Origin: a virus | Length of the DNA stretch: 64,000 nucleotides | Strand: one strand, 5' to 3' | Virus record (IMG/VR): IMGVR_UViG_2928929829_000001 | Location: 16 to 64,015 of that record | Shown: positions 55,073 through 57,739 of the stretch, in pieces | Layout of the letters: the number at the start of each line of letters is the position of its first letter | How positions within the stretch are numbered: the stretch's first letter is position 1 | Notes under the pieces: generated by a model | Databases searched by the model: none | What the model was told of the DNA's origin: nothing | Seen by the model: the letters and a program-made list of their open reading frames with translations, nothing else | Made by a program: the position numbers and the translations under genes

Positions 55073-55246
55073 AAAACACCCGAACATCTGTTTTTTATAA
55101 CTGTGTATGAAAATTTACTAAACCAACACAGTAACGCTAAACGATCAGATTTTCTATAGCTCAACTACTCTACAGGCTATATCAAGAGAATAGGTCAACT
55201 TCAGACCGGCAGTTCCTGTTCCGACTTATCGGGATTCGGGTGTTTT
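55073..55246 (-). ncRNA. Candidate structured RNA downstream of tRNA-Asn
   Basis: Closed by a 12-bp perfect stem AAAACACCCGAA/TTCGGGTGTTTT with nested ATCTG/CAGAT, ACTGTGT/ACACAGT, TATAGC/GCTATA and CCGA/TCGG helices. Confidence 0.5.
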
Positions 55247-55253
55247 TAATTCG

Positions 55254-55326
55254 CGGACTCATTAGGATTCGAACCTAAGACCTAACGATTAACAGTCGTT
55301 TGCTCCACCAACTGAGCTATGAGTCC
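55254..55326 (-). tRNA. tRNA-Asn(GTT), CCA not encoded
   Basis: GGACTCA/TGAGTCC acceptor, GCTC/GAGC D stem, AACGA-CTGTTAA-TCGTT anticodon arm, TTAGG-TTCGAAT-CCTAA T arm. Confidence 0.95.
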
Positions 55327-55360
55327 AAAAAAATCCTTTTTGGCTAGAAAAAGGATTTTT
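55327..55360 (-). terminator. Terminator-like hairpin upstream of tRNA-Asn
   Basis: AAAAATCCTTTTT...AAAAAGGATTTTT inverted repeat with an A tract on the left. Confidence 0.55.
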
Positions 55361-55375
55361 ATATTTGATGTAGTA

Positions 55376-55702
55376 TTAAATTGCCCTCAACTTATCCCTG
55401 GGGACATTAATCGGAATTCCCGATTTATTGACTGAGTTTGCAGCGAATTGACTTTTTAATGTATATAATTTCGATTTACGTTCGATGGGGACTTTTTCAA
55501 TTCCCTGCCTAAACCCGAAATAAACACTTGTAGCCAAAACATCTGCATTTGCAAACAACACTACCTTAACCTCCTTTGAAACATCACTAGAAATGACGGC
55601 TTCAATTTTTGAATTTTTGGCCAGGTCGGAGGAGTTAAAACCGAATCCCGCAATACTGAACAAACAGAACAGTAAAGAAAAAAGCCAAGCTCTCGCTTTC
55701 AT
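55376..55702 (-). CDS. Small secreted/membrane protein
   Basis: Hydrophobic signal-like N-terminus 'AWLFSLLFCLFSIAGFG'. Confidence 0.6.
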   Translation of the reverse strand: MKARAWLFSLLFCLFSIAGFGFNSSDLAKNSKIEAVISSDVSKEVKVVLFANADVLATSVYFGFRQGIEKVPIERKSKLYTLKSQFAANSVNKSGIPINVPRDKLRAI

Positions 55703-55727: not shown

Positions 55728-55928
55728 TGGGAGCGACAGGAATCGAACCTGTACGAATTATAATTGATGTTAGTCAGCACTCCGAAGAGGATATTAGTTA
55801 TTATTTTCATCAATTTTTTTGGATTAACCTATCTTTCCAGCTATTTACCTGACTTGTCTTACAGATAGACTCCTTGCTTAATCCATTCTCGCCCTATAAG
55901 CTAGCGTCTACTATTCCGCCACACTCCC
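55728..55928 (-). ncRNA. 201-nt tRNA-like RNA (Leu-type ends, expanded anticodon domain)
   Basis: GGGAGTG/CGCTCCC acceptor plus discriminator A, GCG/CGC D arm, ACAGG-TTCGATT-CCTGT T arm; ~150-nt internally paired insert instead of an anticodon arm. Confidence 0.75.
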
Positions 55929-55937
55929 AATAATTTT

Positions 55938-56252
55938 TTATGAACGTATTTCTGCAACTAGTCTATCAAAGAATTGAGAAGCCGTTTCTACAATCACCTC
56001 ATCGCCATTTACGAATCTCCCGAAATTTTGAAAGAAGCAGTAATGATCAAACTCACAATCATCATCACCTTGTGGAAAATGGAATCTCAATACTTCAATA
56101 AGACTTCTAATAAGCAAACTATTATCGATTGGATTTACCTCAGATTTAAATACCTCAGAAAGGATAGAAGCCGTGTGTTTGTCCTTTTGGACCTGCAAGC
56201 GGATTGATTCTATAATCGAAATAAATAACCCCTTAGATATCATAATTTGCAT
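55938..56252 (-). CDS. Hypothetical protein
   Basis: 104 aa, first gene after promoter site 6. Confidence 0.65.
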   Translation of the reverse strand: MQIMISKGLFISIIESIRLQVQKDKHTASILSEVFKSEVNPIDNSLLIRSLIEVLRFHFPQGDDDCEFDHYCFFQNFGRFVNGDEVIVETASQFFDRLVAEIRS

Positions 56253-56265
56253 ATTAGCATGAATC

Positions 56266-56309
56266 CAAAGATAATGAAATTTATATATCCGATATGTAAA
56301 TTGATATAT
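56266..56309 (-). promoter_or_regulatory. Promoter with tripartite operator, site 6 (inverted)
   Basis: CAAAGATA at 56266-56273; ATATATC-C-GATATGT-AAATT-GATATAT at 56283-56309. Confidence 0.75.
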
Positions 56310-56402: not shown

Positions 56403-57032
56403 TTATTTTATTATTTCGTGTCTCCCGCGTCCATTGCAAGAAAAACATATTCCTTTTTCAACATGTTTAAATTCAGGTAATATTCCCGAACCACCACACC
56501 TTGAACAATCGTAGCTATTGTAAAGAAACTCTTTACTACCTCTTGATCGATATACGGGTATCTTTTCTTCTTCATGAGTCTTTGTATGACAACTCTTACA
56601 GAGTGTCGTTAATTCCTCATCTAAATACTCCCACGGTAAACAGTCTTGATAGTATAGTTTATGATGAACTTCTAATTTTATACGCTCTCCTATAGGTCTT
56701 GCAAATTTTATTATTCTCCAAAAAAGCATCCTAAGTTCTAAACTTCTGCCACTTAGATTTAAAGCAACAATATTCTCTAACTGTAATCTTTTCTTTTCAA
56801 GATGCATTATCTTCCATTCTGCATCCGTCATCTCTAAATAATAACTTTCGAAACACTGATAATTTGCATAAACACCACATTTTTGGCAAGTCATTTTATC
56901 ATTATCAATTACCTTGCTTCTCCTTCTACGCCATTCTTTAGTTAATAATAAAGTGCCATAAGGAATATGCTGCCCTTTATTATAATCCAACAACACTTGG
57001 TAATCAGTAAATCCAGAAAAGGAGTCGTTCAT
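56403..57032 (-). CDS. HNH endonuclease with C-terminal CxxCxGxG zinc finger (moron)
   Basis: 'CQKCG', 'LEVHHKLY', 'TLCKSCHTKTH', then 'CSRCGGSG' and 'CFSCNGRG'; own TAGATTTG box at 57052-57059. Confidence 0.8.
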   Translation of the reverse strand: MNDSFSGFTDYQVLLDYNKGQHIPYGTLLLTKEWRRRRSKVIDNDKMTCQKCGVYANYQCFESYYLEMTDAEWKIMHLEKKRLQLENIVALNLSGRSLELRMLFWRIIKFARPIGERIKLEVHHKLYYQDCLPWEYLDEELTTLCKSCHTKTHEEEKIPVYRSRGSKEFLYNSYDCSRCGGSGILPEFKHVEKGICFSCNGRGRHEIIK

Positions 57033-57103: not shown

Positions 57104-57739
57104 TTATTTTAGTTTCCCAAGTTTAGTTAAAAGATTCGTTATTTCTGGAATTACAGTACCTGGATACTTACTATATGCGGGATGCCAAACACAAAGACAC
57201 AAAGTTTTTTTTCCGTTACTTGCAAAGTCGATATTTACAAAATTACATTCGCCATCTACCTTGACTTTACTTACACTAAAATGCTTTTCAAAGTGATGAG
57301 CAGTTCCTCCGAAAATTACTAAATCAGGTTTTAAACTATTTATTTGTCTTATTATTTCTATGCTATTACTTTCAAATGCAATCTCAATCTCATCCTCTAC
57401 ACTTTTGGTACAACCTGGATTTTTCTTGACATTTACAATTGCAACGCGACTAATTAATTCTCTACTATATGGAACATTCCATATAGCACTTAATGTTTTA
57501 CATATATTAAAATAAGTAGGAATATCTAATCGAACATCAGTAACCCATTTTTCAACAACTTCCCTTATGTGCCAATTCCCTAATATTGATCTATCATCTC
57601 CCTCTTCGTAAGGTTCCTTCAGTACAAATAGAATTTTTTGTTTCTCTCCATCATATTTGCGTCCATCTACTGCGCCATCCGAAACAACACCCTTCTCCTT
57701 TGGAGAATCACAACAATGTTCATCTTGATTAATTATCAT
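57104..57739 (-). CDS. Uracil-DNA-glycosylase-superfamily protein (moron)
   Basis: Motif A-like 'ILFVLKEPY', 'AIVNVKK', 'QINSLKPDLVIFGG', motif B-like 'WHPAY'. Confidence 0.7.
   Translation of the reverse strand: MIINQDEHCCDSPKEKGVVSDGAVDGRKYDGEKQKILFVLKEPYEEGDDRSILGNWHIREVVEKWVTDVRLDIPTYFNICKTLSAIWNVPYSRELISRVAIVNVKKNPGCTKSVEDEIEIAFESNSIEIIRQINSLKPDLVIFGGTAHHFEKHFSVSKVKVDGECNFVNIDFASNGKKTLCLCVWHPAYSKYPGTVIPEITNLLTKLGKLK

Follow-up and report, generated by a model that had tools for sequence, protein, structure and literature searches.

A prophage-encoded tRNA-Leu-like RNA with an expanded and structured variable arm

The window analyzed here, a 64,000-nucleotide (nt) stretch of viral DNA (positions 16 to 64,015 of IMG/VR record IMGVR_UViG_2928929829_000001), carries on its minus strand a 201-nt gene for a tRNA-like RNA whose top half is intact and of the tRNA-Leu type, with an acceptor stem and discriminator A73, a U8–A14 pair, a D arm and a T arm. 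Within this shell, a two-domain fold of ~130 nt constitutes an expanded variable arm rather than a replacement of the anticodon arm, and the center is a conserved structured RNA that has been kept by compensatory changes in seven phage lineages. Overall, the reading that we favor, and to which we would give about an even chance, is that of a functional, tRNA-processed and non-decoding tRNA-Leu mimic descended from a class II tRNA-Leu. The RNA combines a Leu-type shell with the lack of a canonical anticodon arm and a phage-borne location, and it belongs to an apparently undescribed family of phage RNAs; a literature search returned no description of such an RNA.

A tRNA-Leu shell around a conserved center

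Positions within the RNA are numbered such that position p corresponds to window position 55929 − p, and the coordinates of all features are collected in Table 1. With respect to the shell, the acceptor stem includes a single U.G among its seven pairs and is followed by A73, its third pair being G3–C70, and U8 and G9 lie directly after the acceptor 5′ strand. The D stem consists of 3 base pairs (bp; GCG/CGC) closing the loop GAAUAGUAGA. When compared with the host genome (3.87 Mb in 35 contigs), this D arm proved to be that of the host tRNA-Leu(CAA) minus one base (U) and with G18 changed to A, a substitution that explains the absence of GG from the D loop noted in the original prediction. The central claim of that prediction, which was made from the sequence without database searches, thus holds: a 201-nt tRNA-like RNA in which a Leu-type acceptor stem (7/7 pairs), D arm and T arm enclose ~150 nt.

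ARAGORN in default mode did not call the RNA and found only the nearby tRNA-Asn, which was likewise the only report from Rfam at gathering thresholds. With permissive settings, the Rfam tRNA model (RF00005) aligned to the RNA over model positions 1–71 with a score of 26.9 bits (E 0.0016; the gathering threshold is 29) and a 140-nt local insert where the anticodon arm belongs. The checks proposed in the original prediction therefore gave no default ARAGORN call together with a sub-threshold Rfam alignment. A match to a known intron or other Rfam class, which had been named as grounds for abandoning the prediction, was not obtained.

In terms of evolutionary support, the evidence comes from homologues of the center. 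An 18-mer from this region matched one IMG/VR contig, and two gapped motif scans yielded a total of six homologues (L129, L130, L132, L140, L143 and L144), which together with the window form a seven-sequence alignment, A2. Each homologue sits in a tRNA-like shell with an acceptor stem of its own, and all seven acceptor pairs covary. Four mostly invariant blocks are common to all seven sequences, specifically U-A-x-N-G-G near the 5′ end, AGUCAGGUAAAUA, UUGAUGAAAAUAxUAAC and GCUGACUAACAUCAA, and RNAalifold detected two-sided changes in 14 of 28 pairs. The check for homologues and covariation that had been suggested thus returned six homologues in which the center is kept with covariation.

The individual helices bear this out. 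The 3′ strands of H1 and H2 come out misaligned in MAFFT, and pairs were therefore counted by script. In domain 1, H1 (GGAUUAA/UUAAUCC) is paired in all 42 cells, with 2–4 pair types at positions 3–6, while H2 (CUAUCU/AGAUAG) is paired in 40 of 42 cells, with 2–4 pair types per position and a sequence that is replaced in every homologue; controls in which the 3′ partner was slid gave 5–22 of 42. In domain 2, H3 (UUGAUG/CAUCAA) is invariant in all seven sequences, and the hairpin H4 (CUC-UUCG-GAG, 55780–55789) covaries at two of its three pairs and contains inserts of variable length. The helices proposed originally as UGGAUUAA/UUAAUCCA and CUAUCU/AGAUAG are accordingly present and maintained by compensatory changes. 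The proposed UUGAUG/CAUCAA stem, with its invariant sequence, and the partly covarying UUCG-capped hairpin are present as well.

At the base of the center, the proposed TTATA/TATAA helix did not survive comparison with the homologues. The actual closure is H5, in which GAAU (positions 41–44) pairs with AUUC (171–174) to close the whole insert, with GU and the T stem coming next. Two-sided changes at H5, as read by eye from the printed sequences, give GACU/AGUC in L143 and UGCG/UGCA in L140. Since a class II variable arm has its base at this position and in this register, the original description of a large domain replacing the anticodon arm must be revised to an expanded variable arm beside a degenerate anticodon-arm remnant.

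As a separate observation on domain 2, its invariant UGAUGA and CUGA (55772–55813, minus strand) resemble C/D boxes, and weak Rfam snoRNA matches of 21.4 bits were obtained in this region. A C/D-box k-turn was considered and rejected, as the flanking bases, read by eye, are unable to form the required stem.

The surroundings of the seven elements point to a self-contained RNA. The window and four of the six homologues have co-oriented open reading frames (ORFs) within ~85 nt on both sides, whereas the closest ORFs beside the L132 and L140 elements either overlap them or lie at a distance of >200 nt. No flanking protein is common to the window and the homologues, and a single weak pair was found among the homologues themselves; it is from this near-absence of common neighbors that we argue for an independent element. 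No tRNA genes were found in the examined parts of the six homologue contigs.

An anticodon-arm remnant and two candidate long-range pairings

The original prediction had stated that no anticodon loop could be identified. This is correct insofar as a canonical anticodon arm is missing; positions 26–40 nevertheless retain a remnant, in which a weak stem carries the 7-nt loop UUAUAGG. The stem is variable and only 2–4 bp long, with an A.G mismatch in the window copy, rather than the 5 bp expected beneath a 7-nt loop bearing a Leu anticodon. The loop follows the form Y-U-A-N-N-G-G, and U-A-[U/A]-N-G-G is kept in all seven sequences. Its triplet is AUA in the window; of the homologues, three have AUC, two have AAC and one has AUG, and none of these triplets is a Leu anticodon. 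The earlier exclusion of normal decoding stands, and because the expanded variable arm appears to pair with the remnant loop, as described below, the RNA almost certainly cannot read codons.

The comparative data support a pairing between this anticodon-like loop and the internal loop of domain 2, mainly because of one position, at which all seven sequences are predicted to pair with three different pair types. Specifically, A34–U133 of the window is replaced by C–G in five homologues and by G–C in one, so that all three types are Watson–Crick. Of the other positions, G35–C132 can pair in 7/7 sequences, 33–134 in 6/7 (U–A in five, A–U in one and A.A in one) and 30–137, as U–A or C–G, in 6/7; slid controls for the interaction reached 1–18 of 28. 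When 5,927 column pairs of A2 were scanned, 25 showed 7/7 pairing with at least three pair types. Acceptor pairs one to six, two pairs of H4 and 34–133 are among them; several of the others are rich in G.U, and 34–133 is one of the few that covary through Watson–Crick types only.

A second pairing, between the apical loop of domain 1 and the other strand of the domain 2 internal loop, is proposed more tentatively. Here AGUCAG (75–80) and CUGACU (152–157) offer six complementary positions that are invariant save for one A–U to G.U change in L129. Taken together, the two long-range pairings would produce a knotted fold in which the anticodon-like loop is buried.

Exchangeable centers, a wider family and the prophage setting

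The nearest relative of the locus, a prophage of Flavobacterium sp. JP2137, has the same shell around another center. The two prophages are 97% identical over 517 bases running from the UCGU and T arm through the gene for a 108-amino-acid (aa) protein and the tRNA-Asn, the 3′ shells are identical, and 25 of 26 bases of the 5′ shell agree, with GG present in the D loop of JP2137. Between the shells, however, JP2137 has an 83-nt center that is unrelated to that of the window: a local alignment of the two is at chance level (z <1), and only the UUGAUG/CAUCAA stem is common. The JP2137 copy scores 35.6 bits with the Rfam tRNA model, above threshold, with a 68-nt local insert replacing the anticodon arm. 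The variable stretch begins right after the 26-nt 5′ shell and stops 4 nt before the T stem, homology with relatives bearing other centers ending within the tail UUAUAAUUCGU. The spacer upstream of the RNA cannot be aligned between the window and JP2137.

Logan contigs of four public sequencing runs, mapped onto the locus, extend this picture. Run X2 has the window-type center, with four differences in 803 bases and none inside the RNA. In run X4 the contig ends 10 bases into the center, and those 10 bases are those of the JP2137 center, while in run X3 both flanks are present with 241 rather than 179 bases in between, indicating a third center. Because JP2137 combines the same shell with another center and the six homologues combine the same center with other shells, we conclude that shell and center recombine independently and that the parts are exchangeable. 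These near-identical Flavobacterium prophages, which differ mainly in the center of the RNA, amount to a natural experiment. The original prediction had also named an insert unconserved in relatives as a reason to abandon it; the insert is indeed replaced in JP2137, but that objection is overturned by the six more distant, covarying homologues.

The shell itself is more widespread. The exact D-arm 18-mer is present in 64 IMG/VR contigs, among which 20 distinct elements close with an acceptor stem and T arm. Apart from one normal tRNA-Leu(CAG), none of them receives a tRNA call, and the centers of these 19 measure 46–169 nt. At three loci compared by position (L014, L017 and L027) the element lies inside a phage tRNA cluster. 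L014 and L017 have flanks that are 81–91% identical over ~285 nt around centers that cannot be aligned, and L017 and L057 likewise combine homologous flanks with unalignable centers. Four cultured phages have a shell match under no annotated feature, namely the Lactobacillus phages ATCC 8014-B2 and Bacchae and the Brochothrix phages ADU4 and BtpYZU04, and a closed element was confirmed in ATCC 8014-B2 only. In that phage (L026:6358-7626), a ROOL RNA (139 bits) and tRNAs are followed by an unannotated 214-nt Leu-shell element with a 163-nt center.

Two further observations concern this shell. Nine contigs (L024, L025, L028, L044, L046, L049, L063, L067 and L068) carry ATATAAG with the same Leu D arm, some of them with a GGUGACGGGAGUUCCAAAUCCGAC motif, and show no tRNA-like closure within 420 nt; these may represent a further class. 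In addition, the 25-nt 5′ shell with GG in the D loop is identical to that of cyanobacterial tRNA-Leu(UAA) genes (L079–L112) from Dolichospermum, Anabaena, Pseudanabaena and Gloeobacterales. Since the T arms differ, this identity looks like the result of shared Leu constraints rather than of recent transfer.

Searches for the particular RNA of the window beyond these relatives were largely negative. A family-level search of 400 genomes found no homologue, the INPHARED cultured-phage records contained neither the module nor the whole element, and the 3′ shell, used to scan metagenomes, recovered a single tRNA that is unrelated. Within its own genome, the element gave only short A-rich matches by BLAST, with no other copy and no antisense target of at least 20 nt. 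The idea of a CRISPR-repeat mimic likewise found no long match in the own-genome BLAST, CRISPR arrays themselves not having been looked for.

As for the prophage, it encodes a large terminase that shares 60% identity with those of the Cellulophaga phages phi18:3, phi46:3, phi13:2 and phi19:3, of which phi18:3 is classified in Pachyviridae, Baltivirus, and its host is a Flavobacterium. Upstream of the 104-aa ORF that precedes the RNA lie an HNH gene and then a terminator-like hairpin. A TAnnTTTG-type box, TATCTTTG, was read by eye at 56273–56266, ahead of the 104-aa ORF; this consensus is that of Bacteroidota promoters. On the basis of the tight co-oriented packing, the upstream hairpin and the promoter-type box, the 104-aa ORF, the RNA and the 108-aa ORF are likely to form one transcription unit in this order. 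A single close homologue of the 104-aa protein was found, in JP2137 (83% identity); for the 108-aa ORF, no homologue was seen outside its own cluster. Baltivirus phages have a homologue of the 104-aa protein with no annotated tRNA gene adjoining it, at a locus that was not scanned for unannotated tRNA-like genes.

Several other features of this neighborhood were recorded. The UDG-like gene (57104–57739) and the HNH gene (56403–57032) have no counterpart in the JP2137 prophage, where the equivalent stretch (L078:5020-5992) contains no ORF of >63 aa, and the pair looks like an insertion in the phage of the window. Between the 108-aa ORF and the tRNA-Asn, at ~55327–55362 on the minus strand, a hairpin resembling a terminator, rich in A and U and followed by a U run (AAAAAUCCUUUUU / AAAAAGGAUUUUU), was overlooked by a simple terminator scan, having just two G–C pairs; the tRNA-Asn begins immediately past the U run. 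Downstream of its tRNA-Asn, JP2137 has a stretch of ~190 nt (L078:7053-7250) that starts with CACCCGAA and ends with UUCGGGUG, in agreement with a separate structured-RNA note made on that region from the sequence of the window; the counterpart in the window would be 55073–55246. Finally, a link between the RNA and the GGGCAGG-loop hairpins of the early operon was rejected, as JP2137 shares the hairpin loops but has a different center.

Table 1. Positions of the RNA, its parts and the neighboring genes in the window
Feature	Position	Strand	Basis or remark
Whole tRNA-Leu-like RNA gene, 201 nt	55728..55928	-	Rfam tRNA match and homologues in alignment A2
Acceptor stem, 5′ strand GGGAGUG	55922..55928	-	Pairs 7/7 with 55729-55735
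Leu-type D arm GCG-GAAUAGUAGA-CGC, A18 replacing G18	55904..55919	-	Comparison with host tRNA-Leu(CAA)
Anticodon-arm remnant, weak stem and 7-nt loop UUAUAGG	55889..55903 (loop 55893-55899)	-	Loop pattern in the seven sequences
H5, 5′ strand GAAU, base of expanded variable arm	55885..55888	-	Pairs with AUUC 55755-55758
Domain 1: H1 (55878-55884 with 55821-55827), H2 (55863-55868 with 55829-55834), 28-nt apical loop	55821..55884	-	
Conserved apical motif AGUCAGGUAAAUAG	55841..55854	-	10/14 positions invariant in the seven sequences
Domain 2: H3 UUGAUG/CAUCAA around internal loop and hairpin H4	55764..55813	-	
Internal-loop strand CUAAUA, proposed partner of anticodon-like loop	55792..55797	-	Pair counts in seven sequences
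Internal-loop strand CUGACU, proposed partner of domain 1 apical loop	55772..55777	-	Invariant complementarity
Tail UUAUAAUUCGU: H5 3′ strand AUUC, then GU ahead of T stem	55753..55763	-	Final UCGU common to JP2137
T arm ACAGG-UUCGAUU-CCUGU	55736..55752	-	T loop identical to host tRNA-Leu(CAA)
Acceptor 3′ strand CGCUCCC and discriminator A	55728..55735	-	CCA not encoded
104-aa ORF (phrog_20973), upstream, co-oriented	55938..56252	-	Stop codon 9 nt before the RNA
108-aa ORF, downstream, co-oriented	55376..55702	-	Start 25 nt past the RNA
Canonical tRNA-Asn(GUU), co-oriented	55253..55326	-	ARAGORN and Rfam

Possible function and comparison with known RNAs

As a non-decoding mimic, the RNA would be transcribed as part of an operon of short phage genes. 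RNase P, together with the enzymes that process tRNA 3′ ends, would release it, and CCA would be added. The excised RNA would then persist as a stable species and act in trans through its Leu-type shell, with the conserved domain serving as the effector or as the specificity part for a binding partner. Leucyl-tRNA synthetase (LeuRS) is among the few synthetases that ignore the anticodon. Charging by LeuRS requires A73 and A14 and not the anticodon arm (PMC9976931), and because both nucleotides are present here, leucine charging of the RNA is possible. If the family turns out to consist of mimics that are charged or bind proteins, it would represent a new phage use of the host tRNA machinery and would show that such genes escape standard annotation tools, the members checked in three cultured-phage genomes being unannotated. 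The locus offers a testable architecture in its tRNA-Leu top half, expanded variable arm and two proposed long-range pairings.

A number of points weigh against this proposal. No RNA-seq run was found to contain the locus, and that the RNA is made, processed and CCA-tailed is something we infer, its charging being a possibility. The change of G18 to A in the window copy could weaken both the elbow and LeuRS recognition, and the folding energy of the center is at the level of shuffled sequences (z = −0.05). The helices were located by a complementarity search in each sequence, a procedure that leans towards finding helices; the tertiary pairings rest on seven sequences, and the AGUCAG/CUGACU complementarity shows zero covariation. 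No partner protein co-occurring with the RNA was found. The RNA is also rare in cellular genomes, in that a genus-level search of 400 other Flavobacterium genomes returned only JP2137, and the module pattern, with two mismatches allowed, gave only chance matches in 400 Bacteroidota genomes and no recognized true copy outside its own genome. A purely cis-acting role in the processing of the operon mRNA, discussed next and in our view improbable, would also count against it.

In such a cis-acting role, the tRNA shape would act only as punctuation, recruiting RNase P and the 3′ enzymes to cut the operon between the 104-aa and 108-aa genes, and the released RNA would have no role of its own. The spacing of the genes fits this well, with the RNA 9 nt past one co-oriented ORF and 25 nt before the next and ORFs equally close in four of the six homologues, and so does the tolerance of a completely different center in JP2137. 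What processing does not need is a Leu-specific D arm together with a 130-nt domain whose conserved loops and compensated helices recur across unrelated phages; moreover, the neighboring genes are almost never common to the homologues, which argues that no particular mRNA is served.

A trans-acting decoy or sponge is a related and rather less probable alternative. Here the RNA would occupy a host factor that attacks or uses tRNAs, such as a tRNA-targeting nuclease, an acceptor-end toxin or LeuRS. Phages are known to counter tRNA-targeting defenses with tRNAs of their own, as in the repair of tRNA-Lys by T4 and the action of a T5 tRNA against PARIS, and we count this precedent, the intact Leu shell and the swapping of centers among near-identical prophages, as at arms-race loci, in favor of a decoy. 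The evidence does not separate a decoy from other trans-acting roles, however, and no linked defense gene or counter-defense partner was identified. The form of this idea contained in the original prediction, a decoy for anticodon nucleases, is unlikely, given that the remnant loop matches no host tRNA-Leu anticodon, is not constant among the homologues and appears to be engaged in pairing with the domain.

Of comparable, low probability is a more elaborate version of the mimic, in which the RNA would be a leucine-chargeable but self-locked tRNA. Its giant variable arm would act as sensor or effector, docking of the arm on the anticodon-like loop would gate LeuRS, EF-Tu, the ribosome or a defense protein, and the domains would be swapped as arms-race cassettes. 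If this were true, the RNA would be part of a modular tRNA-scaffold system of natural origin, by which RNA effectors are delivered.

We consider it very unlikely that the RNA is instead a genuine decoder of an unusual kind, in which certain conditions would free the anticodon loop (AUA) of a tRNA with a giant variable arm. The remnant does bear an anticodon-loop signature (Y32, U33, three bases, G37), in a shell that could be charged without an anticodon (PMC9976931). Nevertheless, its stem is only 2–4 bp long and mismatched in the window copy, the triplets AUA, AUC, AAC and AUG include none for Leu, and A34 is unusual. The triplet also covaries with an internal partner instead of staying conserved, ARAGORN rejects the RNA, and an arm of 130 nt is likely to collide with the ribosome.

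Equally hard to sustain is a dead tRNA-Leu gene, the functionless relic of an insertion or recombination, for which one could cite the score below the Rfam threshold, the lost G18, a center that folds no better than shuffled sequence and the rarity of the element among Flavobacterium genomes. A relic would not be expected to retain every motif that never varies in the family, as the window copy does, or to differ from its homologues by compensatory substitutions, which here include the copy-specific A34–U133; its 5′ shell is also 25/26 identical to that of JP2137 despite a neighboring protein of 83% identity and an unalignable upstream spacer.

Least credible of all is an intron-containing gene, of group I or another type, that is spliced to a normal tRNA: although the 25-nt 5′ shell is identical to that of cyanobacterial tRNA-Leu(UAA) genes, many of which have group I introns, and ARAGORN in intron mode yields a model, no group I match was found at E ≤10 (the positive control, a cyanobacterial intron in the same 5′ shell, L085, scored 90.7 bits), the insert is far shorter than the 238–301 nt of cyanobacterial tRNA-Leu group I introns, the ARAGORN models are inconsistent for the same Leu body (Pro(UGG) for the JP2137 copy but Arg(UCG) for that of the window, the stems being mismatched and the sites non-canonical), and the different centers have no common flanking exon sequence.

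Among known RNAs, bacterial class II tRNA-Leu species share with the window RNA the 7-bp acceptor stem and A73, U8–A14, the 3-bp D stem with its Leu-type loop, the T arm, and a variable arm emerging ahead of GU and the T stem. They differ in that their variable arm has 13–21 nt rather than ~130 nt, and in that the window RNA has no 5-bp anticodon stem or Leu anticodon, scores below the Rfam gathering threshold and is not called by ARAGORN.

Among phage RNAs, the stable tRNA-like species of T4 to which the original prediction referred provide a fair analogy in species 1 and 2. These RNAs (rnaC, 139 nt, and rnaD, 119 nt) are also longer than tRNAs and lie beside tRNA genes, and the 3′ end of rnaC consists of a T arm followed by an acceptor-like strand. 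By contrast, rnaC has no Leu-type D arm and an acceptor pairing, read by eye, of only 5/7; neither T4 RNA resembles the window RNA in sequence or modules as judged by eye, without alignment; and the window RNA lies between protein genes near a single tRNA rather than in a tRNA array. Phage RNAs of this type have gone fifty years without a known function.

The tmRNA offers a further parallel, with a tRNA top half lacking a decoding arm, a large pseudoknotted body as its lower half and charging that is independent of an anticodon. Typical tmRNAs are much larger than the window RNA. Furthermore, the window RNA has G3–C70 in place of the G3:U70 identity for Ala, a real D stem, and a body that is an expanded variable arm. 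ARAGORN found no tmRNA in the window and no tag reading frame, and none in the JP2137 copy at relaxed settings, and the only Rfam match of tmRNA type in the region of the RNA reached 9.9 bits (E 8.1). With no detection by these models and G3–C70, identity with tmRNA was rejected.

In YrlA, the stem bound by Ro is made by the ends of the RNA, with the tRNA-like part inside, whereas the ends of the window RNA form the acceptor stem; owing to this reversed topology, identity with YrlA was also rejected. YrlA is a non-coding bacterial Y RNA whose tRNA-like module combines elements resembling the acceptor stem, D arm and T arm, and it occurs in phages as well (PMC4201824). For the proposed contact between domain 2 and the anticodon-like loop, T-box Stem I supplies an analogy, as there too the anticodon loop of a tRNA is bound through base pairing by a short, codon-like triplet of a structured RNA. 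The pairing proposed here would be in cis, within one molecule, and the window RNA has no T-box motif or Rfam match, T-boxes being leader RNAs.

The exchangeable centers of the window RNA and its relatives find a parallel in an engineered tRNA scaffold, reportedly described by Ponchon and Dardel in 2007, which is said to process and stabilize an arbitrary RNA cargo. That scaffold is artificial, with a cargo that replaces the anticodon stem-loop, whereas the cargo of the window RNA is natural and is carried in the variable arm.

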